Shown here: one piece after another, positions 1,552 to 64,000 of the stretch | How positions within the stretch are numbered: position 1 is the stretch's first letter | Layout of the letters: every line of letters starts with the position of its first letter | Virus record (IMG/VR): IMGVR_UViG_3300031521_000027 | Span: 32,001-96,000 of that record | Strand: one strand, 5' to 3' | DNA length: 64,000 nucleotides | DNA from: a virus | Made by a program: the position numbers and the translations under genes | Notes under the pieces: generated by a model | Told to the model about the DNA's origin: nothing | The model's database searches: none | Seen by the model: the letters and a program-made list of their open reading frames with translations, nothing else

Positions 1552-1587
1552 GCAGTTTCCAAAAAGAGAGACCCAAGGAGGTCCAAG

Positions 1588-2748
1588 ATGAAGGTGTTGC
1601 TCCGCACACCGATGAGTCGGTACTCCGGCTATGGCAACGATGGGATCGGACTGGCGCAGGCATTGATGCGCGCCGGAGCCGACGTCTACCTACAGGCCAC
1701 CTCAGTGGACGCCCCCCTCCCGCAGGACGTGGCCAACCTGCTGACCAAGGAGCTGGCCGCTCCGTTCGACCTCTACATCAACCACGTCGACCCGGCCAAC
1801 CTCCAGTGCCCCGACGAGGTCGTACCCCACGCAGCGGTCAAGGTCGCATGGACCATGTGGGAGTACTCCAACCTGCTCAACCTCGCCAAGAAGTCTCGCA
1901 AGGACCTGCGCAAGCGGCTGAAGAACTTCGACGCCTTCATCGGCTACTCCGACGTCGACCCGGACTGCTTCCGGCCCTACTTCGACGGCCCGCTGTTCGT
2001 CCTTCAGGGCGGCTTCGACCCCGCCGAGTGGCCCCACATGTTCGACCGGGAGTGGGACACCAAGGAGTTCCACTTCGCCCAGATCGGTGTGCTCAGCGAG
2101 CGCAAGGATCCCTTCCGCACCATCGAGGCGTTCCGGCTCGCGCGCACCATGGACGCGGAGTTCTGGCGCTGGGCCCGGCTCAGCCTGAAGACCACTGCCC
2201 CCGGCCTGCACCACAAGATCGAGGACCTGTACCGGGACATCGACCCGGAGACCGGTGACGAGTTCTCCTCCCTGCGGATCTTCTACGACATCTGGCCGAC
2301 CGAGGTGGTCCGCCAGTTCTACAAGGTCCAGCACTGCCTGCTGGCCCCGTCCCGGGGTGAGGGCAAGAACGTCCCGGCGCTGGAGTTCATGAGCACCGGA
2401 GGCACGGTCATCGCCACCAACTGGGCAGGCCACACCCAGTGGCTCGACCCTGCCTACTCCTACCCGCTGGCCTACACGCTGGAGCCGGTCAGCTCTGATT
2501 TTCCAGAAACGTTCAACGCTCGGGCGTCCATCGAAGACCTCGCCCGGCTGATGATCCACGTCTTCCAGCACCGCAACGAGGCCCACGAGAAGGGCGAGCT
2601 GGCTGCCCGCATCATCCCGCAGGCACACAGCTGGGATGCCGTCGTGGCGAAGCTCTTCCTGAAGCTCAAGGACAACCTCCCCGCCGCTCAGGGCGAACGC
2701 CTGTGGACCTTGGCCCAGATCGCGAGAAGCGAACATGCAGATCGTTGA
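1588..2748 (+). CDS. GT-B fold (GT4-like) glycosyltransferase
   Basis: SGYG N-terminal motif, ERKD, PSRGEGKNVPALE (E-x7-E), SWDAV C-terminus; RBS AAGGAGG. Confidence 0.88.
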   Translation: MKVLLRTPMSRYSGYGNDGIGLAQALMRAGADVYLQATSVDAPLPQDVANLLTKELAAPFDLYINHVDPANLQCPDEVVPHAAVKVAWTMWEYSNLLNLAKKSRKDLRKRLKNFDAFIGYSDVDPDCFRPYFDGPLFVLQGGFDPAEWPHMFDREWDTKEFHFAQIGVLSERKDPFRTIEAFRLARTMDAEFWRWARLSLKTTAPGLHHKIEDLYRDIDPETGDEFSSLRIFYDIWPTEVVRQFYKVQHCLLAPSRGEGKNVPALEFMSTGGTVIATNWAGHTQWLDPAYSYPLAYTLEPVSSDFPETFNARASIEDLARLMIHVFQHRNEAHEKGELAARIIPQAHSWDAVVAKLFLKLKDNLPAAQGERLWTLAQIARSEHADR

Positions 2749-2959
2749 GCTTCGCTGCCCAGTGGGACCACGCCGCCTGCTGGCCAAGACCGTTGTGGCC
2801 GGAGGACACCCCAAGATCGTGGACGGCAACCTCGTGGAGCTGTCCTGTGATGACTGCAAGAAGACCATGCGGCGGGAGGGGAAGCCGGTGCTGCGAGTGC
2901 TCCACCGGTTCAACCTGATCGGCGATCTGGTGGAGTCGGAGGCCGTCTACCAGCCCTGA
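2735..2959 (+). CDS. small Zn-binding protein resembling Mu Com family
   Basis: ELRCP..RRLLAK...VELSCDDCKK pattern. Confidence 0.5.
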   Translation: MQIVELRCPVGPRRLLAKTVVAGGHPKIVDGNLVELSCDDCKKTMRREGKPVLRVLHRFNLIGDLVESEAVYQP

Positions 2960-2967
2960 GGGCTGAG

Positions 2968-2977
2968 GCCGATCTTC
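2968..2977 (+). promoter_or_regulatory. putative late promoter GCCGATCTTC upstream of major tail gene
   Basis: Same 10-mer precedes lysis genes; resembles sigma-28 -10 GCCGATAA. Confidence 0.65.
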
Positions 2978-3036
2978 AGAGGTAGGCAAGAACTCGAACC
3001 TGTTCACTTGCCAACTCGTTCTGAAGGAGATCGACC

Positions 3037-3615
3037 ATGGGCAACCCGACAGTTGAGGGTTTCAGCATCTCTCACGCCGCCATCCTTGACGGGGCCACCG
3101 GTCTCGAAGAGGAGTTTGGTGACATCTACGGCATCCGGTCTGGCTCCATGGAGCTTGATCAGGACAGCTACGACAACACCGGCGACGACACCATCCTGTC
3201 GACGTGGTACTGGGCCAACAAGGTCAACGTGACGGTGCAGGGCGGCTACATCCCGTTCCAGACCCTGTCGCTGATCTCCGGCTCGGTCGTGGCCAGCTCC
3301 GGCACGGGCGCGAACCAGACCTTCACTCTCCCCCTGTGGGAAGAGAACACGATGAACACCAAGCCGCGACCGATGGTCGTGCGGGTGCCGTCCAAGGACG
3401 CCGACGGTGTCGTGCGCCTGCTGGACTTCGTGCTCTACAAGGTCCAGTTCCAGCCCTTCAGCTTTGACGGCCCGTCGTACAAGGAAGGCCTGCTGCTGAA
3501 CTACAACGGTTCCGCACTGTTCTCCTCGACCGACGAGAAGGGCAACCCGGTCCTCGACAGCCGCACCGGCCAGCCGACCAAGCGCATCGGACACCTGCTG
3601 AGCCGTCCGCTCTGA
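3037..3615 (+). CDS. major tail tube protein
   Basis: Size, position before chaperones and tape measure, strong RBS, beta-rich sequence. Confidence 0.8.
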   Translation: MGNPTVEGFSISHAAILDGATGLEEEFGDIYGIRSGSMELDQDSYDNTGDDTILSTWYWANKVNVTVQGGYIPFQTLSLISGSVVASSGTGANQTFTLPLWEENTMNTKPRPMVVRVPSKDADGVVRLLDFVLYKVQFQPFSFDGPSYKEGLLLNYNGSALFSSTDEKGNPVLDSRTGQPTKRIGHLLSRPL

Positions 3616-3660
3616 CGCTGGAGCTGATTCCAAAAACAACTAAGTAGGAGAGAGAGTCGC

Positions 3661-4194
3661 ATGACGACCGGAAACACTGACATCGACACCTTGGCACCGG
3701 AGGCAACCCCGGTGGCTTTGGTGTCCGGCACCCAGATCAAGGTCGAGCGTCTCAAGACGCGGGCCCTGATGTCCCTGCTGAAGATCCTCACCCGAGGCGC
3801 ATCGGAGGTCTTGCCCACCCTGAGCTTCGACCCGAACACCTCCACCGAGGCGTTCACCGGCCAGCTGCTGGGGGCGGTCATCATCGCCATCCCGGAGGCG
3901 GAGGACGAGGCCGTCGAGTTCATCAACCGGATGGTCTTCCCGGCAGGTCTCCACGACGGGGCCCGCCTGACTGCCATCGAGAAGGCCGAGAACGAGCAGG
4001 CCGAAGCCGAGCTTCGTCTGGAGCTGGTTGACCCGGAGATCGATGACCTCGTCACCATCTTGGAGCAGATCATCAAGGTCGAGGCACCCCACATCGTGGC
4101 ACTGGGAAAACGTCTAGCTCTTCTGCTGAAGGTCCAGCAGACGAGCGCAGTCGCGAAGCAGGGCGCATCCTCGAAGAGAAGCTCGCGGTCCTAG
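3661..4194 (+). CDS. tail assembly chaperone (G)
   Basis: Synteny; in-frame slippery G GGA AAA at 4104-4110. Confidence 0.85.
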   Translation: MTTGNTDIDTLAPEATPVALVSGTQIKVERLKTRALMSLLKILTRGASEVLPTLSFDPNTSTEAFTGQLLGAVIIAIPEAEDEAVEFINRMVFPAGLHDGARLTAIEKAENEQAEAELRLELVDPEIDDLVTILEQIIKVEAPHIVALGKRLALLLKVQQTSAVAKQGASSKRSSRS

Positions 4195-4664: not shown

Positions 4665-4682
4665 GCACAAAGGAGGTGGGCA

Positions 4683-7600
4683 ATGGCTGAGAACGAGACT
4701 CGGGTCATCTACAAGGCCATTGCCGACTTCTCCGCTGTTGCCCGGGAGGCACGCAAGGCCAAGGCTGAGATCGCGGCTCTGAAGGCCGAGGAGGCTGGCC
4801 TCAACGCCGCGTCCGTCTCGGGGGCCAAGGCGTCCACAGCGGCCACGCAGGGCCACACCAAGGCCATCAGCAACGACACCAACGCCGTGCACGAGAGTGC
4901 CAACGCGCACCGGGATCACAACACCGTCCTCAAGGAGGGTGGAGCTGCTGCGAGCGCCCTCGGGAATGCCACCTCGAAGGCTGACACCGTCCTCAAGAGC
5001 GCCACCTCCACGATCTCCAAGCACGCTGGTGAGGCGCGGAGGATGGCCACCGAGACCGAGCGCGTCGGGGCGGCGCTGACTCCGGCAGCCTCCAAGATGA
5101 CCAACTTCCAGCGCGGGGTGCAGCGCGCGGTCCCGTGGGTCGAGAAGATCAACAACGGCTTCGACAAGCTCGGCAAGTGGCGACCCAAGCTGACGCCGCC
5201 TTTCATCGCGTTGGTCCCGATCATCGCTGGCCTGCTGTCCCTGATGAACCCTCTGGTGGCAGGCATCGGCGCACTGGGCGGCGCGGGCATCGGGCTGGCC
5301 TCCAGCCTCGGTCAGGTCGCCGGAGCGGCCCTCGCAGCCATCCCGGCACTGTTCTCCCTGCTCTCCATCGTCGGGGCCCTCAAGGTGGCCTTCAGCGGCA
5401 TCGGAGGGGTGTTCTCGGCCTTCAAGGCAGCGAAGAAGGCTGGAGCCTCAGGTGGGGGTGGCGGAGGCGGCGGTGGAAGCTCACAGGCCGAGATCTCGCA
5501 GGCCGAGAAGGTCGCCCGCGCCCGGGAGAACCTGCGCCGCGCCACGGAGAACCTGAAGTGGGCTGAAGAGGATCTCGCCGACGCCCGCAAGGACTACCTC
5601 CAGAGGCTGAAGGATCTGGAGCAGACCGCCAAGGATGCAGCTGCCTCGGAGAAGCGCCTCACCGCCCAGCGGGAGAACGCGGAGAAGAACCTCGCTCGGA
5701 TCTTGGCCGACCCGAACTCGACCAAGGCCGAGAAGATGGCCGCGCAGGCAGCCGTCGAGGACGCCAAGACCGCCGAGCAGAAGGCCAAGGACAACAACGC
5801 GAAACTTCAGGATGACCTGAAGGACATGAAGAAGAAGGGCATGAAGGGTGACCGGGCGGTCATCATGGCCCAGCGTGCCCTGACCGATGCCATCTGGGCT
5901 CAGCGGGACGCACAGATCGCGCTGATCAACGCCAAGAAGGGCGACGCCAAGGCCTCCGGTGGTGGGGCCTCCGCCAACAACGCGCTCGCCGCCGCACTGG
6001 CCAAGCTCTCCCCCTCGGCTCGCAAGTTCGTCGAGGCGATCCTCGCCATGGACAAGGCGTGGACCAAGGTCAAGAGGACCGTGCAGGAGTCCTTCTTCTC
6101 CAAGATCGTCAACGACACCGGCAAGCTGCGCTCGATGCTGCCCACCATCCAGAGCCTGCTGTCTGACACCGCAGGTGCGCTCGGCGACGTCGCCCACGAG
6201 TTCATCGGGATGATCTCCTCCCCGGAGTGGAAGAGCGACCTGATCCTGCTGGGCAAGCAGAACGTCCCTCTGATCCACGCCATCGGTGGCGGGCTGAACG
6301 TCCTGTGGGGCGTCTTCAAGGACCTCACCGTCATCGCGATGCCATTCCTGATCGAACTCGCCAAGGGGTTCAAGAAGGGTGCCGAGAACATCGCGGCCAT
6401 GGTCAAGGAGGCCCGCAAGAGCGGGTCCCTCAGCAAGTGGCTGATGGGTGACAAGGAGACCGGGTCGAAGGGTGTCCTCGGGACGCTGCGCCAGTGGTGG
6501 CAGATCATCAAGAACATCGCCAAGACCCTGTTCAACTTCGCCAAGGCGGCGGAGGCGTTCGGTGGTTGGATCACCGACGGTATCCAGAAGACCACCGAGG
6601 GCTGGCTGGCGTCCTCCGAGGCAGCCACCAAGAAGGGATCTCCTTTCAAGAAATGGCTTGAGGACATCAAGCCCCTCCTGTCCGAGATCTCCCGGATGTT
6701 CGGCACCTTCTTCAAGTGGTTCGGCAAGCAGGCTGCCGACCCGAAGAACATCAAGCAGATGACGGAGATCTTCAAGAAGATCACCGACGATCTTGGTCCC
6801 AAGCTGGCGTCACTGTTCGATGCCCTGAGCAAGGCCAACATTGGCCCCAAGTTCGTGGACTCGCTGATCAAGATCGTCGACCTGATCACCACACTGGTGG
6901 ATGGCCCCGGCACTGCGGTCTTCTTCGACACCCTGAACGGGCTCCTCGACATCCTGCTGACCGTCATCAAGATGCCAGTCATCGGCCCCGTCCTCCAGAT
7001 GCTCATCGGAGCCGCCGCAGCTATCGGAGCCATGTCCTTCGTGGCCAAGTTCACCGGCCTTGAGAACCTCATCGGGTGGCTGATCAAGCTCTACAAGACC
7101 GGTGGCATCCTCAAGTTCTTCGAGTCGCTGAAGACCGTCCTGATGAAGCTCTTCGGCATCACCGGGAAGCGGTACACCGGACTCAGCTTCATCAAGGCGA
7201 TGTTCTATGGGATCGCCGACGGAGCCAAGTTCCTTTTCGGAAAGCTCGGCAAGCTGTTCGGCCTGTTCAAGGGGCTGCCCAAGCTCCTCAGTGGGCTGAA
7301 GGGCTTCAAGTGGCTAGGCAGCCTGCTCGATGGCTTCAAGGTCCTCCTCTCCGGGGGAGGTCTGAAGGGCTTCTCCACCCTGATCAAGGGGTTCGGTAGC
7401 CTCAAGGGGTTCGCGTCGATCCTGAAGGGTGCAGGTGGCCCGCTCGCGGCCATCGCGTCGATTCTGGGCACCATCGTGGGCGACGTCATCTCGAACAACG
7501 CCCCCGAGGGCAAGGACGGATCCGGCCAGCGGCTCGGAGGCAACACCCTCTCCGGGGCAGCCACAGGCGCAGGCATCGGTGGCTCTGTCGGCCTGCTGTT

Positions 7601-9944: not shown

Positions 9945-10796
9945 ATGGCAGGCAACTACGCCGACGTGCCCTCGTGGCGCATGGCATACGACCGCGACGG
10001 CACGCAGGGCTTCAAGATGAACTCCGGCGTTCTGACGCAGCTGACCAACGCCAATCTCATCACGATCAACAACGAAGCTGACGACTACATCAACATCGGC
10101 ATCAGCCAGAATCAGGCTGGGTACCTGATCCTCCTGTTTCCTGAAAAGAGAGACCTCGACGGATACTGGATCACGGGCAGTGACAGGGACAACTTCAGCG
10201 CGCAGGTGCAGACCTCGACGAACACCACGAACGGGTCCGATGGCACGTGGACGAACCTCGGCGGCACCTACAGCGTGGTCGAGGCGGTTGTACCGAACTA
10301 CCGGCTCCACGCTCAGTCGGCCACAGCCCTCGGGATCCGGGGCGTCCGGATCTCCGCAGGAGCTGGGCTGGGCACTGGGTTCAACCCCGCAGCTGTCCAC
10401 CTCTACGGTGAGATTTCCGCAGGCCAGAGCATCGACCGGCTCGCGCTGTGGCACCCCACCCTTGATGAGCGCATCACCCCGGCGTACTTCGACTGGGGCA
10501 ACGTCCCCCGTAACACCTCTGCCTCCCGCACCTTCCGGGTGAAGAACCTCGCCGCAGCGAAGACGGCGAACACCGTCCGGGTGGCCATGGAGTCCTTGAC
10601 CGATGGATCCCCCTCGGTACCGGCACAGCACACCTTGTCCATCGGCGGCGGGTCCTACCTGCCACAGCAGACCATCGCCACGCTGGCCCCCGGAGCCCTC
10701 TCCGACGTCCTCACCCTCCGCAGGATCACCCCCGCCAACGCACAGCTGAGTCTCAGCGCCTTCCGGGTGTTCGCCGAAGCAGCGACGTGGAGCTGA
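9945..10796 (+). CDS. minor tail protein, paralog 1
   Basis: ATG 9945 after AGGAG; MAGNY..SWRM..D.DGTQ; FDWGNVPR...FRVKN Ig-like C-terminus. Confidence 0.8.
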   Translation: MAGNYADVPSWRMAYDRDGTQGFKMNSGVLTQLTNANLITINNEADDYINIGISQNQAGYLILLFPEKRDLDGYWITGSDRDNFSAQVQTSTNTTNGSDGTWTNLGGTYSVVEAVVPNYRLHAQSATALGIRGVRISAGAGLGTGFNPAAVHLYGEISAGQSIDRLALWHPTLDERITPAYFDWGNVPRNTSASRTFRVKNLAAAKTANTVRVAMESLTDGSPSVPAQHTLSIGGGSYLPQQTIATLAPGALSDVLTLRRITPANAQLSLSAFRVFAEAATWS

Positions 10797-20498: not shown

Positions 20499-21241
20499 AA
20501 GCAGTGACAATGACCGCCGCCACCCCCGTCCCCCTCTCCGACTACCAGAGCGAGTTGGTCAGGACCCACGTGGGCCTTGCCCAGAGCATTGCAATGTCTT
20601 TCTGGAAACGAGCCGCATCGGAAGTGGACCGCGACGAGATCGTGGCCATCGCCTATCAGGGGCTGATCACCGCCGCCCAGAGGTACGAACCCAACATCGT
20701 CCCGGAGAACGACCCGGACGTGGCGCTGCCCCCTGTTGCACTGACGTTCGGCCAGTACGCCAAGCGCCGCATCGGGGGAGCCATTCAGGACTGGATGCGC
20801 CAGCTGGACCACGTCCCCCGCAGGCAGCGCACCATCTACAAGGACATGCAGGAGCTGGCCCCCGGCAGGAGCCCTGAGGAGACCGCAGAGATCCTCGGGA
20901 TCGACGTCAACCGGGTCCGTGCGATCACCCACGCAGTCGAGTGCCCCCCGGTCTCACTGGACGACATGGCAGGCGACAGCGACCGGGGCAACATGGCTCC
21001 CCCAGCTGAGGGAGGCACCGAGGGATCAGTCGCAGCCCACATGCTTCAGGAGGCCATGGTCGAGGTCATGGAGGGGATGCCGTCGTTCGAGAAGTCGGTC
21101 ATCGTCCTGCGGTACTACATGGGCATGAGCTTCCCCCAGATCGCCGCCGAGCTGGGCTCCAGCGTGTCCACCGTCAAGGTCACCCACCAGCAGCAGATCC
21201 TGCTGATCCACGCCGCCATGGTCCAGACTGCGCGCTCCTGA
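20495..21241 (+). CDS. phage sigma factor, FliA/WhiG (sigma-28)-like
   Basis: GLI.AA.RY.P, F..YAKRRI.GAI.DW.R..D.VPR, VSLDD, VI.LRYY..MSF.QIA.ELG. Confidence 0.9.
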   Translation: MKAVTMTAATPVPLSDYQSELVRTHVGLAQSIAMSFWKRAASEVDRDEIVAIAYQGLITAAQRYEPNIVPENDPDVALPPVALTFGQYAKRRIGGAIQDWMRQLDHVPRRQRTIYKDMQELAPGRSPEETAEILGIDVNRVRAITHAVECPPVSLDDMAGDSDRGNMAPPAEGGTEGSVAAHMLQEAMVEVMEGMPSFEKSVIVLRYYMGMSFPQIAAELGSSVSTVKVTHQQQILLIHAAMVQTARS

Positions 21242-24649: not shown

Positions 24650-24796
24650 TCGTCTTGCAGCTGGAGGGTTCACGCCCTTCACCTCCTGCCTAAGTTGACC
24701 GCTTAGCGAGTGACGGGCTCCCATTAAGGAGTCCGTCACTTGGCGTTTTACGAGAAACAAGCGGTCAACTTATCGGTCACCCCATGGAGGATTTCT

Positions 24797-34423: not shown

Positions 34424-34516
34424 GCAGGACTTGTTTCTTGAAACAGGTAGTGCTATCGTCCTTTTTAGAAACAGCGGTCACCTAGACAGCTCAAGACAGC
34501 ACGGAAGGAGCCAGTA

Positions 34517-48023: not shown

Positions 48024-48123
48024 GGCGGGTTTCCGGAAACAGTTGACACGCCCGCCTTGATGGTCCTAAGATAGAGACATCAAGGCGGGCACCCCCCGCC
48101 TACCAGACGAGAGAGAGCCAGTC

Positions 48124-48906: not shown

Positions 48907-49075
48907 CCTGAGACAGCTGGGGACATCATGGGGGTGGAGCCTCCAGCCAGTACCGAGAGCACCGGCCACCTACCTGACCGGTGCTCTTGTTGTTTTCGGA
49001 AACGAGTTGACACCGAGCAGCCCATGGTCCTATACTAGAGACATCAAGCGGTCAACGCCCAAGCAGGAGAACACC

Positions 49076-49609: not shown

Positions 49610-49738
49610 GATGCCCCGCCCGTCCAAGCTCCGTCTCGCCGTCGAGTGCCTGATCCTCTTCGGCGGGACCACCGCCTTCACCGTCATCACCGCCGCCGTC
49701 TCCAACGCCCTCCACTGAGTTTCAAGAAAGAGCACACC

Positions 49739-50894: not shown

Positions 50895-51002
50895 TTCTGA
50901 GGGGCCCCATCGTGTTTCTCGAAAATGCGATTCGGCCCCTCACTCAGATTCCGAAAATAGCTGTGCACTCACCCCGGCAAACGTGTGTGTAGACTCCCCC
51001 AC

Positions 51003-51293
51003 ATGTCTTTCTCAAAACAACCGCAGCGCGTCTCCATCGCCATGGTCATGCAATCCCTCCGCGAGCAGGCAGAGACCGTCACCGACGCCCGTAACGCCCT
51101 CACTGACGCCATTGCGGACCGGGACGCCATGATGGTCGAGCTGAAGGCCGCAGGGGTCCCTGAACGCAACATCATGAAACTCACCGGACTCAGCAGGGAC
51201 TCCGTCGCCCGGATCACACAGGGAGCCCGTACCGCCGCCGCACTGGACGCAGAGGCACTCCTCGCCATCCCTGCACCCGGCAAGCTGCGCTAG
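51003..51293 (+). CDS. HTH DNA-binding protein, leaderless
   Basis: GVPERNIMKLTGLSRDSVARI; TAGACT -10 at 50990; three TTTC-NN-GAAA-like sites around start. Confidence 0.7.
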   Translation: MSFSKQPQRVSIAMVMQSLREQAETVTDARNALTDAIADRDAMMVELKAAGVPERNIMKLTGLSRDSVARITQGARTAAALDAEALLAIPAPGKLR

Positions 51294-51319: not shown

Positions 51320-52405
51320 ATGGCAGCAACCATCCACCGCCTCCGGGTCCGCAACTTCCAGAGCCTGCACGACATCGAGCTGGAGCTTCTCCCGTTCACC
51401 GTGATCGTCGGGCCCTCCTCCTCGGGCAAGTCGGCACTCACCCGGGCCCTGCGCACCCTCGTGTCCAACAGGCGGGGTACCGAGTGGATCACCCACGGGG
51501 AGCGGACGGCATCCATCACCGCAGAGACCGACGCAGGCACGGTCACACTCACCCGCAGCCGCTCCTCCGCATCGTCGGACAACGCGTACACCCTGACGCC
51601 CGCAGACAACCCGGAAGCCCAGCGGACCTACGCCAAGCTCGGTGGCGACACCCCGGAGGACGTTTCGAGATTCCTCGGCATCAACTCCGGCACCACGGCC
51701 ACCCCGCCGATCAACTTCGCAGGCCAGTTCGACAAGCCGTTCCTCCTCGCCGACTCCACCGCCGACGTCGCCCGCACACTGGGGGCCCTCACGAACGTCA
51801 ACATCATCTTCGAGGGAGCCCGGGAGTCCAACAGGCAGAAGCTGGCCAACGCGGTCACCCTGCGCACCAGAGCAGCAGACCTTGAAGCGGTCAAGGCACG
51901 GGTCCCCGAGTTCCGAGCCCTGAAGGCACAGGACGTGGCCCTCACCGCAGCCGAGCAGATCATCGAGCACGCCCGCCAGCTGGAGCGCCAGATCGCCCGG
52001 CTCTCACAGGCACTGGACATCGTCACCGTGATCGAGCCGTCCCTGCCACGCCTCCAGCGCCTCGCAGACATCGTGGTCCCTGACGAAACATCGATCCTCC
52101 GGGCCCAGAGCGCCCTCTCCAGCTTCCAGCAGGCTCTCACCCGGATACCGACCCTCGCCCGAGCCCAGCAGGCCGCACAGCAGGCGTACGACGTCATCGA
52201 CACACAGGAGGCCAAGCTCCTCGCCGACTATGCCGAGTTCACCGGGGAGATCACCGACTCCCTGCACGGGTGGATCGGGGGCATGACCCTGAGGGGGGAC
52301 ACCCGGATCGAGTTCTCCGAGACCGGCATCGAGGTCGAGTGGATTCAGACCGACGTGGCCGTGAGTCTCTTCCTGAAGTATCTCGAAACGAAGGCCAGTT
52401 CGTGA
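51320..52405 (+). CDS. SbcC/Rad50-like ATPase, N-terminal half only
   Basis: RNFQS, VIVGPSSSGKSA..RAL, NF.GQFD.PFLL, coiled coil; no signature or Walker B; middle promoter 51285-51315. Confidence 0.8.
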   Translation: MAATIHRLRVRNFQSLHDIELELLPFTVIVGPSSSGKSALTRALRTLVSNRRGTEWITHGERTASITAETDAGTVTLTRSRSSASSDNAYTLTPADNPEAQRTYAKLGGDTPEDVSRFLGINSGTTATPPINFAGQFDKPFLLADSTADVARTLGALTNVNIIFEGARESNRQKLANAVTLRTRAADLEAVKARVPEFRALKAQDVALTAAEQIIEHARQLERQIARLSQALDIVTVIEPSLPRLQRLADIVVPDETSILRAQSALSSFQQALTRIPTLARAQQAAQQAYDVIDTQEAKLLADYAEFTGEITDSLHGWIGGMTLRGDTRIEFSETGIEVEWIQTDVAVSLFLKYLETKASS

Positions 52406-52683: not shown

Positions 52684-54956
52684 TCACGCCCCGCAGGTTC
52701 CTCATCCGCTCCCGGGACAACCTCGCCCAGATCCTCGCCGAGGGAGTCGTGTGGTCCAACGGCGGGGTCAGCACCGTCCGCCACCCGTGCCGCTGGTTCA
52801 AGGACTCCCGTGGGCTCGCCCTCGCGCTGCCCGAGGAGCTGGGACTCCCGACCCCACAGAACCTCGCCCAGCTGGAGAACCTCGCCGCAGCCGTGTGGGG
52901 AGAGCTGGACTGGCTCGACAAGTCCGAGGAGGAGATCGCCGCAGCAGCTGCACAGGCGCAGGCCAAGATCGACGAGGCATGGCGGGATGCGCAGGTGGAC
53001 ATGCACAAGATCCTCTTCGCCGCCCGGAAGCTCGACTGGCGGGACCCGGTCGCCGTCGCACAGGAGCAGCGCACTTCCCGTGGCCTCGACGAGGTTTCAG
53101 GAAACGAGCCCGCCCCCGAGGAAGATTCTGAGCTGCCCTTCGTCGGCTACCGGGTGGCACAGGCCGCTCCCGGTGACTTCCTCATCTCCGGTGACTTCTC
53201 CGCGCAGCAGGCAGCGCAGGACGAGGAGGACATCGACACCCTCAAGAGCTGGTGGCCCCACCGGACCTTGACCGTCCACATCCCTGAGCCCAGCAGGCTT
53301 CTCTCGACGCTGCTGCTGGGCCATGACCCGTGGGCCGAGGTCATCGTCGGCAAGGACACCACCATCAACGGGATGCTCGGCGACCTCGTATTTCGTCCGT
53401 ACGGGCCCAGCAGCTCCGAACCCGTACCAGTACCCGCAGAAGGTGCTGCTGAGCCCGTGGACCCCCCACAGGGCCCCGCTGAGCAGCCGATCCAGTCGTG
53501 AGGGTCGCGATCACCGAGGCAGATCTTGTCTCCCTCGCTCCCGACAGCGTCATCCTGCTCACCTCGTGGGGTAGTTACTCGAAACGAACCGACGGCTTCT
53601 GGCAGCGCGCGGGTGGACTCCCGCTGAGTTCCCGGCACATGGCCTCGGGCAAGCCCCTGCTGGTCATCTTCGACGCGGGCCGGATGGAACAGACCATTCG
53701 GGTACTGGAGGCCGACGCCCTGTGCACCCTCCAGCTCTCGGGTGGGGAAGCCCTGCACGCACTGGCCGAGATCGACTTCGTGAACTGCTGGCGCAAGCAT
53801 CATCCGAGGGTGGAAGATTCTGAGCGCCCCCCTGCGCAGCCGACCGGCTGAGGCGTACCAGTGAGTGGGGGAGATCATGGCCGAGTTGTTCCTGACTGGT
53901 GCAGCTTCTGTGGCTCTCTTCTGCTTGACCATCACCGGCATCCGCTACGCAGTGAGGAAGATCCGTGTCCGACGTTTCCAATAACGAGCCCGACGAACTC
54001 CGTGGCAGCAGGCGTCTCTCGCCGCACGGCACCATCGCCGCAGTCCGCAGGCATCACCGTCACCACGAGCAGCTCTGTGAGCCCTGTGCGGTCGTCTCCA
54101 AGGCTGACCGGGCCAAGCGGTACCGGGAGGACCACGAGAAGTCCAAGAGCGCCATCGAGACCGCGCGCCGCACCGCCAAGGCCCGTGCCTACCGCATCCT
54201 CGCCGAACGGCACTACGTCGAGTGGATCGACTTGCTCGACGACACCACCGCCGAGGAGCTGGAGTCCAAGGGACTGACCGGGTGAGCGACTTCGAGCAGC
54301 CCGTCTTCGGGGACTACGACCAGTTCGTCACCTTCGCTGACGACCGGGTGATCGCCACCTACCAGCTGCCTGTTGAGCCCGATCCTGAGCTTCCCGTGGC
54401 CAAGCCCAAGAGCCCGTACCAGCAGGCCCTGTCACTGGCCAACAGCGTGCTCCCACACCCCCTCGACGACGATCAGGCGACTGCTCTCGCAGCGGTGTAC
54501 GCACAGCTGGCAATAGCCGACAGGCTCGAACGGGTGGAGACTGGAATCCTGAAGTCTCTCGCAAGTCCCCTTCCGGGTGACACGGGAGACGTGGAGGGCG
54601 GGCCTTGATGGGCACAGACGAGCTTTCGACGTACATGACGCGCCTGCGGATCAGGCTCAACCGGGCGAACATCCCCGAGCGGTACTTCATGGAGCGGGGT
54701 CACCCGTGGATCAACACCCCGAAGGGCAGAATCCTGCGCCCTTCGCTCGGCCACGCCTTCCATGGCACCGGGGTCTGACCCTGTGACGTCCGCCCTTGTC
54801 CCCGAGCCCACTGAACGCTGCGCAGTCCCCCGCAGTGCAGGCAGCGTCGTGGTGTGTGAGCTGGCCCACGGACACGGGCCTGACATCCCCGGTGAAGCCC
54901 GGGTGCACCGAGGCCGGGACAAGGGTGGGCACTGGCACGACTGGCCGTCGCAGTGA
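52680..54956 (+). CDS. hypothetical genes (52680-53501, 53498-53851, 53877-53984, 53965-54285, 54282-54608, 54608-54778, 54783-54956)
   Basis: Coupled ORFs; middle promoter 53832-53862; HGT...H....C.PC Zn motif in 53965. Confidence 0.55.
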
Positions 54957-55087: not shown

Positions 55088-56366
55088 TCAGTAGCGCTTG
55101 ACTGTCTCCCCCCTCTTCAGGCGGTTCAGCTCGAACGGGCGGAGCTTGCGGCAGTACTTCCAGCTCCGACGGGACAGGCCGTGGTCGGTGCAGTAGATGA
55201 AGCCGGACTCATCGATCATCGTGATCGGCTTCACGCAGTCGGTCTTCATGTCGCAGTGCAGCTCCACGACCACCGGGGCCGGGGGAGTGCCCCAGCCGCA
55301 GTGGGAGCAGACCCCGTTGTGGATCGTGCCCTTCCGACGCCTGCCGGTGCACTGGGCCATGGTGAGGCACGGGTCCACGCTGGCGTGCACTGGGCAGATG
55401 AAGGTGGTGACCGAGCCGTCGAGGTGACGAGCGCACACGCAGGTCATGATCACAGCGCCTTCGCGGAGTAGGTGATCGACTGCATGACCCCGGTGCCCCA
55501 GCTGCGCGTGCTGTGCACGACGAGGGAGAAGGACAGGCCGGGGTACTGCTTGAGGATCACCCGGCGCACGCGGGCCTTGATCGCGTCAACGTGGCGGTCG
55601 AAGTTGCGGACGCCTGCGTTGCCCCAGCCTGCCTCACTGGACACGGTCACGAGGAGCCGGGTGGTGGAGGGATCGATGCTGGTGGTCACGGTCCAGTCCT
55701 TGCGGGTGGCGCGGAGTTCGGAGAGTTCGCGGGGAGATTCGTACATGGCTGGTGCCCTTCGGTGTGGTTGTTCCGGCTTGATGTCTCAAGTTTACCCCAC
55801 CCCTGTCCCTACGTCAAGTCATTTCCAGAAACAATCGAGATCACTCCCGGGCTCAGAATCTTGATACGCCAAAGAGCCCCTCCCCCCGAAGGGGGAGGGG
55901 ACATCCTCCGGTGTGAAGATCAGTCGGTCACCACCACCTTCGCGTGGCGAGCAGCCTCGGTGTCCATCTCCGCGCCACAGCTGCACTCGAAGTGGTAGGG
56001 GTAGACGAAGTCCCAGCGGTGGCGGCGGTGGGTCTCCGGGCCCGTGAGGGTGTCGAAGCGGCCACACGTGGCTTCCTTGAAGGCTGCGTAGGTCTTGTAG
56101 ACCCCGATGATGGCCTCCGGGTCGAGGGTGAACAGGGTGTCGATGAAGATGCCCCACTCGTCCCACTGGGCGGCGTGCTCGTCGCCGTTGCCTGCACCGA
56201 AGTTCGGACGGCTCGCGCTGTTGCCGGTCAGGCGGATGTCAAAGGAACGCTTCCGGGAGCGGGAGCCCTTCGTCTCGCAGTCGGCCAGCTTGACGCCGAC
56301 CATGCCCCTCGCGTGGACCGCCTGCACGAGGTCGGAGTACTTGATGACGTCGGAGTGGATCTTCAT
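55088..56366 (-). CDS. leftward early genes (55088-55453 Cys-rich, 55450-55746, 55920-56366)
   Basis: Each unit starts with a minus-strand early promoter and GAAGGGCA.CAGCC ATG leader. Confidence 0.7.
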
Positions 56367-56558
56367 GGCTGTTGCCCTTCCTTACGGGTACCGGGTTGTT
56401 CCGGCTTGATGTCTCAAGTTTAGGACACACTGCCACTCGATGTCAAGCGAAACTGGCAGGAGTTATTTTCGGAAACGAGTTGACACACGTCCCAAGGTAG
56501 GTACATAATAGAGACATAGCCGGACGCACCGGCTCCTCGAAAGAGAAGGGCATAAGCC

Positions 56559-57554: not shown

Positions 57555-57724
57555 GGCTGCTGCCCTTCGGTTGTTGTTCCGGCTTGATGTCTCAAGTATA
57601 GTACACGTGCGCGCGTATAGCAACTCGTTTCCAGAAAAAGATTGATCGAGTATTCGCTTGACACTAGCTAGGTACATGCCTTAAACTTGAGACATCAAGC
57701 CGGATCAACCGAAGGGCACCAGCC

Positions 57725-59964
57725 ATGGCTCAGTTCTCACTCACCATCAACCTCGACGGTGAGGCGTTCTCCGAGGAGACCGAAGACCGTATGGACACCC
57801 AGCTCGCTCCCGAGTACGAGCTGCACCGCCTTCTGACCGACATCGCCGTGACCGTGAAGTACGGGACCTTCGAGGGCTCCATCATCGACATCAACGGTCA
57901 CAAGGTCGGGCAGTTCGCGATCAACACCGAGGACCCCCAGACCTTCTCCCTCGCACAGGTGCAGGACCGCAACGAGCACTTCGCCAAGGACGCACGCTTC
58001 GTGCAGGTGAACTGACATGACCCGCTTCTACGGTGGCCTGATCAACAGGCTTCAGGAGGGCGCTACGGTGCGCGAGGTCCCCAAGGTGGGGGACGGGGCC
58101 ACCATGTACCTCTACAGCGACAGGCACGCCTACACGGTGCGCGAGGTGAAGGTCAGCCCCAGTGGGAAGACCATCACGATCAAGGCCACCCGGGACCACG
58201 CAGTGCGTACCGACGGCGGGGGCTTCAGTGAGTCCCAGACCTACGACTTCACCACGGTGGGGGAGCCCGAGGACGGGCAGACCTTCAAGAGCGTTTCAGG
58301 AAAGCCGTTCCGCTCCGTCTACTGGGACCACGAGGCCAACGGCTACCGGATGTCCGAGACCATCCTGCGGGTCGGTCACCGCGACGAGTACTACGACTTC
58401 ACCAAGTAGCCAGCTGGGCTCCCGGTCCTCGTGATCGGGAGCCCACACGCACGAGAGGAACAACTAATGGACACCTTCATCCGCGTCGCCGTCCCCGAGG
58501 CTGTCACGCTCCGCACCAAGGAGCTGCTCAGTGGACTGGGCATCGAGGCCAAGTTCGTGGACGACCTTGCCGAGGTCACCGCCCGCGACATCCTCGCCAC
58601 CTACGCCGGGTGTGCGGGGGTAGATGATTCTGAGCGGTTCGCTCCCGGCGACCGCTTCATCACCATCGGCACCGACCCGGGACGCAAGGGCATCGTCGTC
58701 AGGCTCGAACGCAACCTCCGGGTCAATACCACGGTGTGTGTCGTGCTCGACGGTGAGGACAAGGTGATGAGCTTCGGAGCCAGCGTGATGCAGCTCATCG
58801 AAGACGCCCTGCCCGAGGACGAGGAGATCCTCGACGACATCCCCCCGCTCCGGCAGGAGAACGAGGAGCTGAACGAGGACATGGTCTACCGGGCCCTGCG
58901 CGCTACACCCAGCACTGCCACAGCACAGTCCCAGCACGCAGCTGCGGGAGCCTTGTTCGCCATGCTGCGCTCCCGGCCCTACTCGGCACCACGGCTGAAC
59001 GAGCGTCAGGTCTGCAACTTCGTGGAGGTCATGGTCGGCCTCCCCTGCATCACCGGGGCACAGGCAGCCGCCGTGCTCGCACTCGTTTACGGAAAGGAAG
59101 TCCAGTCATGACCGCACTCGACCGCATCGTTCGTTTCTACGGGATCGGTGAGACCATCATCCTCGCCGAGTTCAAGGCAGCCGAGAAGCTGATCAAGGAG
59201 TACGTGGACGACACCATCGCAGGCATCCGGGCACGTATTTCCTGAAACAGTTGACAGGAGAGCTGCTGTGTCCTAAGCTAGAGACATGAACACAGCAGCT
59301 TCCCTGAACTACACACTCAACCCCGAGTGCATCAAGGTCGACCGCTTCATGGGCCTGAACATCGTGTTCGTACCCGCAGGCATGGTCTACCGGGTCACCG
59401 ACGTCAACGGGATCAGTTACTTCGAGTCCACCCCTGACCGGCTCATCGCCTTGATGAAGCAGCACGGGCGCAAGCACCTCAAGAGGAAGGCACGTTAGAT
59501 GGGCAAGTGGGAGATCGCCAACAACGGCAGCGGGAAGCGTATCTACTTCCTCTTCAAGGACACCCCCACGGGCACGGAGTACCACTGGAGTGCAGGAGGT
59601 AACCTCGTCCGCTACGCATCACACATCACTGCACAGAAGGCGGCAGACAAGCTCAACGCCTGACCCCAAGCCACTGTGGCCTCGTTCCTCCGGGAGCGGG
59701 GCCACTTGACTTTGTGTCCCTAACATGAGACAATAGACGTATGAGCTACCCAGACCCTCGGAAGGAGGCCACCTCATGGAATACCGGATCTACCGCAGCA
59801 CCATCGCTCCCGAGAACGTCATGCCTGAGCGGGCTGACTCCCAGCTGGAGGCCAGCTTGCTGGCACAGAAGCTCTCCTACCTCGAACCCAGCATCCGCTT
59901 CATCGTGAGTGACCGGGACATGAACTACCTGTCCAGCTACCTCGACGGCACCTACATCCAGTGA
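57725..59964 (+). CDS. early hypothetical genes (57725-58015, 58017-58409, 58467-59111, 59108-59245, 59286-59498, 59499-59663, 59776-59964)
   Basis: Early promoters 57658 and 59251; RBSs and coupling. Confidence 0.62.
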
Positions 59965-60184: not shown

Positions 60185-61414
60185 ATGACCTCAATCATCA
60201 TTGGCTACACCCCCAGCTACCTCGGCTGGAAGGGCAGCTACGCCTCCCCCCGCCGTGCCCACCTCGCCGTCGAGCACATCATCGCTCGCGCCGAAGAGGA
60301 GGGCGTGGACATCGAGATCATCGAGCCCACGTTCAACCGGATGCAGGTGGCCAAGGAGCTGTCCCGCGTGCACTCCAAGTCCTACGTGGCCAACGTGCTG
60401 CGCGGAGCCCATAAGGAGCACCCCGGCCAGCAGGGACAGATCGCAGCGCTCATGTTCGAGGGCACCCGCGTGCTCGTGGACAAGATCATCGCCGACGGCT
60501 TCATCCCGCAGGTGTACTTCAACCCGCAGGGTGCCAAGCACCACGCCGGGTACGACGACAGCTCGGGCTTCTGCGTGTTCAACGACATGGCCTACGCCGC
60601 CACGGTCTTCACTGACCGTGGCCTGAAGGTGGCCTACCTCGACTGGGACGTGCACCACGGCGACGGGGTGGAAGCGCTCACCCGCAACAACCCCAACGTG
60701 CTCACCGCGTCGATCCACCAGTTCGGCATCTTCCCGGGCACTGGGCTGAAGAGCCAGTGGAAGAACAGCGTGTTCAACTTCCCCATGGCAGCTGGAGACG
60801 GTGACGAGGAGTTTCTCGAAACTGTGGCCATCGCCCTTGAGGCCATCAAGGACTTCGAGCCGGACGTGTTCCTGCTCGCAGCAGGGGCTGACGGCCTCAA
60901 CGAGGACCCGCTGGGCAGCCTGCGCTACACCCTCGACGGCATCGAGACCGCAGCCACCATGGTGGGCAAGCTCGCCAAGGAGCTGAACATCCCCGTGCTG
61001 ATCGGCGGGGCGGGCGGCTACACCCCGTTCACGTTCACCCCGCTGGCATGGCACACCACTGTGTGGGCCATCCACGACGAGCTGAAGAAGGCTGTCAAGA
61101 GCATCGACGAGGAGGCGTTCGACTGGTCGGGCTCCCGCTACGACTGGGACCGCACGGATGGCCACAGCGAGGGCGAGAAGCCCGCTCTGGACGAGGCAAT
61201 CGAGGAGGGCTACAGCAACGACCGTGCAGCTCACATCGACGCCATCATGGACGGACTGGAGGGCATCCCCAGTGACTGCTGGGAGGACGTCCTCACCCGC
61301 GAGGAGTACGACCTCGTGGCATCCAAGATCGAGCCGATCATCCTCGCCGACGCACAGCGTGCAGCAGCCGAGGTCTCCAAGCCCCGGCGCAAGGGCAAGC
61401 GGGGTCGCCGCTGA
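60185..61414 (+). CDS. Zn-dependent histone deacetylase/AcuC-family protein
   Basis: G.KHHA....SGFCVFND, LDWDVHHGDG, SIHQ..IFPGTG, GADG...DPLG, GGGY. Confidence 0.95.
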   Translation: MTSIIIGYTPSYLGWKGSYASPRRAHLAVEHIIARAEEEGVDIEIIEPTFNRMQVAKELSRVHSKSYVANVLRGAHKEHPGQQGQIAALMFEGTRVLVDKIIADGFIPQVYFNPQGAKHHAGYDDSSGFCVFNDMAYAATVFTDRGLKVAYLDWDVHHGDGVEALTRNNPNVLTASIHQFGIFPGTGLKSQWKNSVFNFPMAAGDGDEEFLETVAIALEAIKDFEPDVFLLAAGADGLNEDPLGSLRYTLDGIETAATMVGKLAKELNIPVLIGGAGGYTPFTFTPLAWHTTVWAIHDELKKAVKSIDEEAFDWSGSRYDWDRTDGHSEGEKPALDEAIEEGYSNDRAAHIDAIMDGLEGIPSDCWEDVLTREEYDLVASKIEPIILADAQRAAAEVSKPRRKGKRGRR

Positions 61415-61544
61415 TCAAGATTCTGAGGAGGACCGGGGGCAACCTCGGTCCTCTTTAGTTTTCGGAAACAGTTGACACAAGGTAGGTACATGCCCTAAAC
61501 TTGAGACATCAAGCCGGAACAAACCACACCGAAGGGCACCAGCC

Positions 61545-62498
61545 ATGGACATCACCACTCCCGAGAACATCACCGTCGAGAGCTTCACCTCCCCCGTCCT
61601 CACCGGCAGGGACCAGCGCAGCCTCAAGGCGTTCGTGCTCGCAGGCATCCTCCCCAACGGTGACCAGCACCGGGTCAGCCTCACGGTCAGCCACGACGCC
61701 GACCGCAAGTCCTTCCGTGTCAGCGTCAGCCGCTACACCCGGGAAGCCAGCACGGACCACGGGTTCGTCGTCGAGCACTACGCCCTCATGGAGGACATCG
61801 CATCGCTGGGCGGGATCAAGGTCGCCCGGTACAGCTTCAAGGCCCTGAACGCCACCTTCCTCGACGCTCTCCCGGTCGCGGTCGCAGCCCTCAAGGATCA
61901 GCTGGCTGACTTCCTGCTCACCCCGACCACGGCCCGCTGATCATGAAGAGCGGCATCGCACTGATCGTGCTGGGCGTTCTCCTGCTCGCCACTGGAGTCA
62001 TCACTCCCGGCCTGCTCGGGATCTCCATGGGCCTCCTGATCGCCATCAAGTCCAAGGCCACCCACCGGGTGCCCGTGGTCCCCCATGCTCCGCAGCGGAT
62101 GATCCAGCCGCAGGAGCAGGCACCCATGGACTGGAGGGTGGCCCTGTCTGACGTACGCACCCACGTGAAGGACACCGGGTGCCTCGTGCGCAGGAGCGAC
62201 TTCGAGAGCAAGAACGGGTTCTGCCCGAACGGGGGGAGCTACTGGGAGCACGACTGATCCAGACCCAAGAGCACTCGGCTTGTTTCTCGAAAGAGTTGAC
62301 AGGTCGAGTGCTCTGTCCTATACTTGAGACATGAGCAACGGTATCAGCGGTCAACCAGCCACCCCCTACAAGCACACCTTCGCCACCGGCACCGAGTGCT
62401 ACAGGGCCCGTGCAGCAGCCATCCGCAGGGGTGAGTCCGTGAGTGGGGCCCACCGCACGAAGGAGACCTTCTGGTTCAAGAGCAACGTCAAGGACTGA
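61545..62498 (+). CDS. early hypothetical genes (61545-61940, 61943-62257, 62331-62498)
   Basis: Promoters 61472 and 62296. Confidence 0.62.
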
Positions 62499-62506
62499 AC
62501 AGCAAG

Positions 62507-62537
62507 AAGCCCCCGACTCCACAGTGAGTCGGGGGCT
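62507..62537. terminator. bidirectional terminator AGCCCCCGACTC...GAGTCGGGGGCT
   Basis: 12-bp perfect stem between convergent genes. Confidence 0.75.
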
Positions 62538-62587
62538 CTGCTATGCCCGGGAGGGAGGGGGGAAGATTCTGAGCCTCCCCAGCGGGA

Positions 62588-62881
62588 TCACACCGTGGGT
62601 TCGACGGGCGGCTCCTGCGGATCGGCGGCGTTGGCGGCGGTGTCCAGTGCATCTGCCGACCCGGTCAGCGTTGCGGTGATCGCGTCGATGTCAGCCTGCT
62701 GGAGAGTGCCAGCGTCGAGCTTGGCCTTGAGGTCTTCGAGTGCGGCGATGGCTTCCTGTACCTCCGAGGAGACACGGGTAGCTGCGGCTTGCAGGGCTTC
62801 GAGAGCGGCCATGATGAGATCCAGCTTTCTGTCGATGGAGTGTGGGTAGTCGTGATGGACGTGGACGTGGATTGTCGCCAC
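62588..62881 (-). CDS. coiled-coil protein with HVHVHH N-terminus
   Basis: RBS AGAGGG; Ala-rich heptads. Confidence 0.65.
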   Translation of the reverse strand: MATIHVHVHHDYPHSIDRKLDLIMAALEALQAAATRVSSEVQEAIAALEDLKAKLDAGTLQQADIDAITATLTGSADALDTAANAADPQEPPVEPTV

Positions 62882-63046
62882 TTGTGCGCCCCTCTGGGTT
62901 GAAGTGCAGGGAGTCCCGCAGGCATCACGCTACAAGCACTCACAGTGCGGCTGGCAAGGAGCAAACTTGCCCCAAAGTCGTTTCGACTTGTTTCTCAAAA
63001 CAGTTGACAACCAGTGCCCAATGACCTAAGCTAGGTACATAAGCAA

Positions 63047-63144
63047 GAGAGAGCCCCGAAGGGCACTGGCAGCAAGGCACGGATGCTGAGCTGGAACCCT
63101 GAGACTGATCAACAGCGCAGGGTGCAGAGCGAAGGGGCTCTCTC
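63047..63144 (+). ncRNA. candidate structured leader RNA
   Basis: 11-bp closing stem GAGAGAGCCCC/GGGGCTCTCTC enclosing two hairpins, right after early TSS. Confidence 0.45.
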
Positions 63145-63167
63145 AATATCGAGGAAGGCTCCTCCCC

Positions 63168-64000
63168 ATGAACATCCAGTTCACCTGCCCCCAATGCGGG
63201 CGGATCGAGAACATCGCCACCGCAGTCCACACGTTCCCCTCCTACTCCAAGGCCGTCACGGTCATCTGCTCCACCTGCACGGAAGGCAAGTAGTCATGAG
63301 CAACACCCTCCCCCCGGCCCTGATCAAGGCCATCGACGCCAAGTTCGTCACACTGGGCACCCAGCTGGACGAGGCACGCGCCATGCTGAAGGAGGGCAGG
63401 TACGCCAACACCAAGAACTCCCGCCGCCAGCTCATGCAGAGCATCCAGTACCTCGAAGCCCGGTTGGCTGGCCAGCTGGACATCATGCAGCTCACCCACA
63501 ACTTCACTGCACAGGCCCTCACACGCGAGGAGCTGTACCACGGCACCGGCTTCGCTCCCGGCGCGCTCTTCATCCAGATCAACTGATCCAACACTCACGG
63601 CCCGTGTTTCTCGAAAGAGTTGACACGGGCCTCTGTGTGTCCTAAGATAGAGACATGAAGTTCATTGCTGGCGGAATCGCCCTGTACGCGCTGGGCCTGT
63701 ACCTCGCATCCACCCACTTCGGCGGATGGGCGTTCCTCTGCCTGATCGTCGGCACCATCCTGATCCTGAACGCACACGAGTGATCGAGGCACTGGTCGTC
63801 GCCCCCACCGTCTCCCTGATCGGGATGATCGTGTGGGGCATCGTGTACGCCGTGCTCGACGCCATCGCCCCCCACCTACCCACAACAAGATTCTGAAAAG
63901 GAGCATCACCATGGTCTTCGGTATCCCCGCCGCTGTGCGCCTCACCATCGTCGAGGCCATTGGCCCCTTCGTGATCATCGAGGTGGGCAAGAGCGACATC
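63168..64000 (+). CDS. small early genes (63168-63293 Zn ribbon, 63296-63586, 63655-63783 membrane, further partial ORFs)
   Basis: CPQC/CSTC; leaderless ATG at 63655 after promoter 63620. Confidence 0.58.

Follow-up and report, generated by a model that had tools for sequence, protein, structure and literature searches.

A short palindrome, TTTC-NN-GAAA (TTTCNNGAAA), is dispersed through the DNA of an uncultured, large high-GC actinophage, lying both inside coding sequences and directly upstream of early promoters. We analyzed it in a stretch of 64,000 nucleotides (nt), hereafter the window, which comprises bases 32001-96000 of the 104,213-bp IMG/VR virus record IMGVR_UViG_3300031521_000027. 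The palindrome is real, strongly selected and regulatory-looking: it is very probably a selected protein-binding site on duplex DNA, and probably one that regulates early promoters. The explanation that we consider best overall, and to which we attach an even chance, is that TTTCNNGAAA is bound by a symmetric dimer of a phage-encoded regulator, most likely the product of a small helix-turn-helix (HTH) gene at 51003.

An earlier note on this DNA had listed 25 copies of TTTCNNGAAA in the window and estimated that well under one would be expected by chance. All 25 proved exact and correctly placed, and 100 dinucleotide-preserving shuffles gave an expectation of 0.17 copies (largest 2). The whole 104-kb record holds 35 exact copies, among which all spacer dinucleotide classes occur. 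A scan of spacer lengths across the record found enrichment only for N2 (35 copies) and N1 (10 copies), with 0-1 copies for N0 and N3-N8, while the inverted order GAAA..TTTC gave 0-1 copies at every spacing; that only the TTTC..GAAA orientation is enriched, and only with these two spacers, fits a symmetric dimer. The 10 N1 copies take the forms TTTTCNGAAA or TTTCNGAAAA, each with one extra T or A, such that the outer TTT-N4-AAA frame is kept. The 8 specified bases form a perfect palindrome with no oriented conserved flank, and the median distance between sites, N1 forms counted, is 1.7 kb.

Around this core the sequence is graded. One-mismatch sites number 22 in the window, compared with about 5.8 expected, the commonest changes being C4 to T and G7 to A. 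Ten of the 11 near matches named in the earlier note are such sites, whereas the eleventh, at 47503, has 2 mismatches but still lies within a GTTT-N4-AAAC frame; the window contains 14 copies of that frame (GTTTNNNNAAAC), where 0.03 would be expected. The claim that many copies extend to GTTTCNNGAAAC was overstated, as full 12-mers number 6, with a preceding G in 20/35 exact sites and a following C in 15/35. As a working consensus we use yGTTT(C>T)NN(G>A)AAACr; the fuller form of TTTCNNGAAA is yGTTTCNNGAAACr.

Most copies (63%) are intragenic. Twenty-two lie within + strand coding sequences (CDSs), in all three reading frames, where they encode F-x-E-x, V/L/I-S-G-K/N or x-F-K/W-K. We compared this number with codon-preserving controls, a check that the earlier note had proposed: synonymous-codon shuffles that kept every protein plus each gene's codon usage yielded 0.43 sites (maximum 4 in 1000 shuffles), and codon-order shuffles yielded 0.06. 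Among the peptide contexts able to encode the motif, 22/60 do so. The tail-fibre gene illustrates the codon choice, exactly as had been described: three V-S-G-K repeat units read GTT TCN GGA AAG, whereas sibling units use GTC TCC GGG or GCC TCC GGC.

For comparison with relatives we designate the studied record G000. It is linear (completeness estimate 84%) with a measured GC content of 64.4%, lower than the approximately 66% given earlier; nearly all of its genes lie on the + strand, with virion genes followed by replication genes and then by a long 'early' block of small ORFans. The only isolated relative, Microbacterium phage Magritte (OR553905, 133 kb), is syntenic, at 30-77% amino-acid identity. 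IMG/VR supplied uncultured relatives at about 85% nucleotide identity (G004, G002 and G001), a complete 128-kb relative at about 70% (G003), and the farther relatives G005 to G012. A near-identity search with 12 kb against 50,697 phage records gave zero matches, and the string TTTCNNGAAA was found in no paper of the literature searched. A wider IMG/VR search for the module of motif plus promoter returned 37 single matches, which is chance level, with G004 as the only kin.

Conservation at synonymous sites agreed with the shuffles. In 43.8 kb aligned to G004/G002 (84.9% identity overall and 77.3% at third codon positions), 14 sites could be aligned; 111/112 of their core bases were identical, including all 36/36 core bases at third codon positions (P about 9e-5 against the 77.3% background). 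In the same alignment the NN spacer was identical at 24/28 positions and the flanks at 88.8%, and three sites differed in the spacer only. Enrichment over codon shuffles combined with synonymous-site conservation thus supports selection on the motif at the DNA level. In the more distant G003 only the site in the helicase peptide Y-F-K-K is kept in place, yet this genome has its own 11 + 7 + 3 copies, indicating that sites turn over. The helicase peptide is encoded as TAT TTC AAG AAA in the motif-bearing G000 and G003, and the codon string ends in AAG in G006 and Magritte.

Intragenic sites occur in late, middle and early genes alike, with roughly one every 2-3 kb. In the window, exact copies lie in CDSs for a glycosyltransferase (2500..2509, encoding F-P-E-T and kept in G004/G002), the tape-measure protein (6644..6653, P-F-K-K, kept in G004 with a spacer change from AA to CA), a minor tail protein (10137..10146), the tail fibre (V-S-G-K units at 15580..15589, 15694..15703 and 17200..17209), an SNF2-type helicase (19040..19049, the Y-F-K-K site described above), a sigma factor (20599..20608), a DnaB-like helicase (22174..22183) and DNA polymerase I (28574..28583, the full GTTTCGTGAAAC). 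Further exact copies lie in the CDSs 37045-37584 (37077..37086), 49646-50083 (49720..49729), 52491-53501 (53095..53104) and 58017-58409 (58294..58303), and in a histone-deacetylase-like CDS (60812..60821). The exact site at 34434..34443 is intergenic, upstream of gene 34517, with a one-mismatch site 28 nt downstream (34462). The tail-fibre sites at 15580 and 15694 are not fully independent, since both lie within one 114-nt tandem duplication of the 1570-amino-acid (aa) gene (15533-15751, 1.9 copies, 81% identity), with the palindrome in both copies.

Two of these site-bearing genes carry further annotation. The sigma factor (20495-21241) is FliA/WhiG-like (NCBIfam 1.3e-21; Pfam Sigma70_r2 + r4), and its Magritte homologue is annotated 'DNA binding protein', as is that of 24740-25465, which itself has only a faint sigma-70 signal (E 0.005). 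The histone-deacetylase-family protein (60185-61414, early region; Pfam Hist_deacetyl, 3.8e-51) has homologues in Magritte, G006 and G003.

Three readings of the motif were considered and rejected. Cryptic intragenic promoters were ruled out, as the coding sites have no additional conserved flank and a TANNNT box stands at -10 promoter distance in only 1/22 of them. The resemblance of GAAAC to the -35 of extracytoplasmic-function (ECF) sigma factors raised the possibility of a -35 element for phage sigma factors, which was excluded by the lack of a downstream partner and by the strict symmetry. An RNA hairpin was dismissed by reasoning, since a stem of 4 bp could not close around a loop of 1-2 nt.

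The second body of evidence comes from the early promoters. These form a SigA-type family with 19 copies record-wide, TTGACA-N17/18-(gtcc)TAAGAT/TATACT-agagacAT, found in the window at 43285-63660; at several of them the ATG of the first gene comes 6 nt after the -10 (e.g. 43942, 45515, 59286 and 63655), suggesting leaderless mRNAs. At 12 promoters in the window (11 on the + strand and 1 on the - strand), the motif or a one-mismatch or N1 variant of it ends 3-4 nt before the -35, as the earlier note had reported. The distance is 4 nt for the exact sites at 43893..43902 (-35 TTGACA at 43907, a leaderless early promoter), 45465..45474 (-35 at 45479) and 57628..57637 (TTGATC at 57642, with a TTGACA promoter next at 57658), for the minus-strand promoter with a site at 55822..55831 (TTGACG at 55817), and for the TTTTCGGAAA variants at 48993..49002 (-35 at 49007) and 56466..56475 (TTGACA at 56480, in a divergent promoter region). 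It is 3 nt for the exact sites at 48030..48039 (-35 at 48043; kept in G004 with a changed spacer), 59238..59247 (59251, leaderless), 62283..62292 (62296) and 63607..63616 (63620, leaderless), for a further TTTTCGGAAA variant at 61459..61468 (61472), and for the one-mismatch site TTTCTCAAAA at 62991..63000 (63004).

The site keeps a constant distance to the -35 rather than to the -10, whatever the length of the spacer between the two boxes, which places the center of the site near -44. The same layout occurs in G004, and a looser match to it in G010 (ATTTCNNGAAAT) and in Magritte, which has six ATTTCAGAAAT sites; in both genomes some copies lie 3-4 nt before a -35-like hexamer. Moreover, six equally good promoters have no site, so that the basic promoter does not include the element, whose role is more likely a regulatory one.

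This geometry also raises an explanation with no dedicated factor, in which the motif would act as an UP-element-like contact for RNA polymerase or through intrinsic DNA shape, with by-products as the copies inside genes. UP elements are AT-rich, lack symmetry and occur only upstream of promoters. The sites do place an AT-rich block directly upstream of the -35, which is where contacts by the C-terminal domain (CTD) of the alpha subunit are expected. However, C4 and G7 are near-invariant, symmetry and spacer length are strict, the six promoters just mentioned lack the site, and the 22 intragenic, promoter-less copies are conserved at synonymous positions, and we regard such an element as the least probable of the alternatives. 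Recruitment by a WhiB7-like AT-hook protein was ruled out separately, as no WhiB-like cysteine pattern or Pfam match was found among the proteins scanned.

Other repeated elements accompany these promoters. In a subset of them the spacer between -35 and -10 is occupied by another conserved element, c(t/a)AGGTAGGTACAtg (window 56486, 57664 and 61478; beyond the window 64244, 65239 and 68193), and may be the operator of another factor. A polar repeat, (A/T)GATTCTGAG, occurs in 20 copies, 19/20 of them on the + strand and many intragenic (for example at window positions 22009, 27159, 42139, 50893, 53124 and, on the - strand, 55860); a link between the palindrome and this GATTCTGAG repeat was ruled out, as the distances between the two are unrelated. 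Two divergent promoters next to the motif serve the only clear block of minus-strand genes (window 55088-56366); among its products is a 121-aa protein that contains 11 cysteines and belongs to no known family.

If the palindrome is an operator, the comparison of relatives points to a candidate for its binder. We scanned every relative de novo for gapped palindromes before looking upstream of any member of the 51003 gene family. Dispersed palindromes differed between genomes: TTTC-N2-GAAA in G000, G004, G003 and G010, ATTTC-N1-GAAAT in Magritte, GTTA-N5-TAAC in G006, TATT-N6-AATA in G008 and TTGCA-N2-TGCAA in G007; none was found in G005, G009, G011 and G012. The small HTH gene (51003..51293, + strand, 96 aa) was present in 10/10 clade genomes examined, always just before a gene for an SMC/RecN/OLD-type Walker-A ATPase (51320..52405, + strand). 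In 6/6 genomes (G000, G003, G010, Magritte, G006 and G008), a copy of the palindrome particular to that genome is found 30-130 nt upstream of the small HTH gene. As a control, about 50 gene families shared by five or all six of these genomes were put through the same scoring; the next best (the 34517 family) reached 3/6 and 37 families reached 0/6. The G006 and G008 palindromes overlap the -35/spacer region of the promoter that serves the HTH gene. In the studied genome, the putative auto-operator is the exact site at 50915..50924, 79 nt upstream of the gene start, and a one-mismatch site (TTTCTCAAAA, 51008..51017) covers codons 2-5 of the gene itself.

Autoregulation by a co-evolving regulator predicts just this pattern, in which the operator varies between relatives while its place, upstream of a single small HTH gene, is constant. 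Of the three proteins that the earlier note had named, the 51003 product therefore emerged as the best candidate, whereas the one at 52402 has no recognisable DNA-binding domain. We put the chance that the 51003 protein is the binder close to even, if anything slightly below. Its AF2 model has a 38-residue helix followed by a C-terminal HTH (predicted local distance difference test, pLDDT, 84.5), and its ESM-atlas neighbors are small actinobacterial HTH proteins, including one cluster with KORA and Fis-type HTH domains, which serves as a lead only.

Other dispersed palindromes were also found in the relatives (counts are for whole records): GTTAC-N4-GTAAC in 8 copies in G010 and ATTGCAAT in 12 copies in G003 and 14 in G007, beside 18 copies of TTGCA-N2-TGCAA in G007 and 8 of GTTA-N5-TAAC in G006. 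Several sets of regulator and operator seem to be evolving within the clade. A locus search with the ATPase alignment returned 57 loci, with the HTH-ATPase pair in one new record only (G022), which has a local TATTTAGAAAATA upstream of its HTH gene and lacks the dispersed motif.

Several observations weigh against the 51003 protein as the binder. Its model resembles known folds only weakly (TrpR, the resolvase E-helix plus HTH, and Fis, all with E at least 0.5), and no Pfam or NCBIfam family reaches threshold for 51003-51293. In G007 the HTH gene is preceded not by the top palindrome (TTGCANNTGCAA) but by TTTTACGAAATAG plus a second ACGAAATAG, and G005, G011 and G022 have the small HTH gene but no dispersed motif. 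The recognition helix reads SRDSVARIT in G000 and SRDRISTIA in G003, which have the same motif, while G007 and G008 share SRDRLYTI yet have different palindromes. In addition, the site at 50915 is placed unlike the early-promoter sites, and the HTH-ATPase operon, being among the few clade-conserved early operons, could be a conserved target, with the regulator itself encoded elsewhere.

The second HTH protein singled out earlier, an 80-aa product of 24328..24570 (+ strand), is indeed a MerR/Xis-type winged-HTH protein, but its link to the motif is weak. As the binder it would be made with the replication genes and would shut early promoters in mid-infection. It matches HTH_17 (23.6 bits), its AF2 model (pLDDT 77) has as best fold neighbors the RacA DNA-binding domain, BldC, Xis and MerR, and RacA reportedly reads a compact palindrome at dispersed sites. 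Furthermore, all the other genomes with strong TTTC-N2-GAAA (G004, G003 and G010) have homologues, whereas G006, Magritte, G011 and G005 have none. However, homologues also occur in the motif-less G007, G008, G009 and G012, and by a Fisher-type count the association is not significant (P of about 0.14, uncorrected for shared ancestry); G003 and G007 have identical recognition helices despite their different motifs; Magritte has promoter-linked ATTTCNGAAAT sites without this gene; and no motif copy lies near the gene itself. The Pfam score is below threshold and the fold matches have E of about 0.1. A tblastn search with the protein against the 50,697 phage records gave zero matches, sequence searches of both HTH candidates against the PDB returned nothing useful, and residue-level covariation with the motif was clean for neither. 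We consider the 24328 protein an unlikely binder.

A host transcription factor or nucleoid protein might instead bind the motif, the phage having gathered sites to exploit it. The distribution of the motif is patchy in a way that would suit this, strong in G000, G004, G003 and the distant G010 but absent from the closer G006 and Magritte; the strongly positive genomes all have 63.5-65.3% GC; and the endolysin of G000 is shared, among the genomes compared, only with G010, a hint of related hosts (a search for the host via the endolysin in genome contigs found nothing). Against a host factor, five unrelated IMG/VR phages have motif counts only at control level, and the palindrome, though it differs from one relative to the next, keeps its place upstream of a single phage HTH gene, as expected for a co-evolving phage regulator. 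We therefore judge it improbable that the binder is a host protein, if a little less so than for the 24328 product.

The earlier note had also likened the half-site to parS/Noc boxes. In such a reading a ParB-family or condensin-like system, with a role in organising or partitioning the genome, would load at the copies. GTTTC is identical to the half-site of parS, inverted GTTTC/ATTTC half-sites are likewise dispersed in parS/ParB and in the Noc-binding sites (NBS) of Noc, the sites recur every 1-3 kb, and the candidate HTH gene is always paired with the SMC/RecN-type ATPase gene. But the central spacer is 2 bp here and 4 bp there, within palindromes of 16 or 14 bp, the parS/NBS spacing TTTC-N4-GAAA has 0 copies, and the fixed position at -35 boxes points to transcription. 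Pfam, PHROGs and NCBIfam scans of about 80 proteins revealed no ParB/ParBc domain, only a faint RepB match to the 50985-51293 open reading frame (E 0.0085), so the proposed kinship found no support, and a role as loading sites is very unlikely. DNA-binding candidates of any kind were few in these scans, comprising the FliA/WhiG-like sigma factor, the faintly sigma-like 24740-25465 product, the HTH_17 protein and the frame at 50985/51003-51293. An integrase, an immunity repressor and ParAB were likewise not recognised in these scans; the lack of integrase and ParA among the scanned proteins leaves no sign of a plasmid prophage.

Returning to the 51003 protein as regulator, we infer the following mechanism from the enrichment, the selection and the promoter geometry. 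The protein would dimerise via its long N-terminal helix, with the C-terminal HTH of each subunit reading one half-site, and would accept the C4 to T and G7 to A variants provided that the TTT-N4-AAA frame is kept. Through the copy at 50915 it would control its own operon, which comprises the HTH and SMC/RecN-like ATPase genes. At the early promoters a bound dimer, ending 3-4 nt before the -35, would abut sigma region 4 and the alpha-CTD. Since the -35 and -10 of these promoters are already near consensus, the likeliest effect would be feedback shut-off of early transcription. We favor repression over activation on the basis of these near-consensus promoters, the location of the regulator in the early block, and the G006 and G008 palindromes that lie over the regulator's own promoter. 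Activators that contact sigma region 4, however, are classically centered near -44 as well. The approximately 22 intragenic copies would be kept by synonymous codon choice and act without a promoter, probably as auxiliary sites for roadblocking, titration or looping. The roles in coating, compaction, protection and partitioning suggested in the earlier note are purely inferential.

The phenomenon fits a known kind, that of dispersed operators and dyad repeats of actinophages and of KorA-type operators. Cluster O phages (Corndog) have 34 copies of a 17-bp dyad repeat (TGTTCGGNNNCCGAACA), about a third of them in genes, with no function assigned (PMC4351075); the earlier note had already mentioned a dispersed dyad repeat there, with a different sequence. 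Like that repeat (PMC4351075), the present one is a dyad with invariant arms and a free spacer, occurs in more than 30 copies genome-wide, is denser in the early arm and partly coding, and belongs to apparently non-temperate actinophages. It differs in sequence, length (10-12 bp versus 17 bp) and phage lineage (the nearest isolate here being Magritte), in its larger intragenic share (63% versus about one third), in its fixed distance of 3-4 nt from the -35 at 12 promoters, and in having a candidate cognate gene. In cluster A phages (L5, Bxb1 and TipsytheTRex), a phage HTH repressor binds stoperators and blocks both initiation and elongation (PMC9283540). These asymmetric 13-mers are oriented with transcription and lie for the most part in short gaps between genes; a monomer binds them, and they serve lysogenic immunity (PMC9283540). 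Both systems have at least 20 copies of one operator, at early promoters as well as dispersed (here 12 promoter-adjacent and about 22 intragenic), but the present element is a palindrome and mostly intragenic, and the scanned proteins included no recognised integrase or immunity repressor.

KorA operators are repeated at several mobile-element promoters, where they overlap the -10, and are not known to have intragenic copies, and KorA is encoded in an autoregulated operon with an ATPase gene; by contrast, the early-promoter sites described here end upstream of the -35. KorA of the IncP-1 plasmid RK2, a 101-aa HTH protein, reads its 12-bp operator, GTTTAGCTAAAC, as a dimer (PMC2680271). The operator has the same GTTT-N4-AAAC frame that is enriched in the window, with different inner bases. 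The order of domains is reversed, however: in KorA the HTH is N-terminal and the dimerisation domain C-terminal, opposite to the 51003 model, and 51003-51293 has no KORA Pfam match, its sole link to KorA being the ESM-atlas lead at 0.87. The present case stands apart from these systems in its sequence and phage lineage, the high intragenic share maintained by codon choice, the fixed abutment to the -35, and the lineage-specific operators tied to one gene; new, too, is the candidate binder.

Several further genes were noticed. A 303-aa protein (46580-47491) has a PHROG 'DNA topoisomerase' match (5.9e-104) with no Pfam match, and is shared with G004 only. A phage protein with a ProQ C-terminal-like domain (44590-45006), a NADAR-domain protein (41357-41845), an RlaP RNA-repair nucleotidyltransferase (L102:6288-7109) and a PNKP-phosphatase-like protein (L100:2532-3041) form an accessory set, RNA-repair or ADP-ribose-related.

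Dispersed dyad repeats have been known in actinophages for more than 10 years, with the cluster O repeat having neither a function nor a binder in the 2015 paper (PMC4351075). The clade described here offers a tractable case, with a fixed geometry at SigA-type promoters, purifying selection at synonymous sites and one conserved small HTH gene. Magritte, a cultured relative, encodes the HTH protein as gp154 and carries six ATTTCAGAAAT sites, which makes direct tests feasible both of the binder and of what the intragenic sites do. The case shows an operator that constrains codon choice in structural and replication genes, and operators that diverge fast between related phages. A more speculative and, in our estimation, unlikely extension is that the small HTH protein and the adjacent SMC/RecN-like ATPase form a phage genome-marking system, in which the HTH dimer would recognise lineage-specific palindromes every 2-3 kb, placed within genes too through codon choice, and would recruit the ATPase to organise, protect or count genomes, and the -35 sites would couple this to the shut-off of early promoters. 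If true, it would be a lytic-phage counterpart of the KorA/KorB/IncC central control, with operators evolving fast between relatives.

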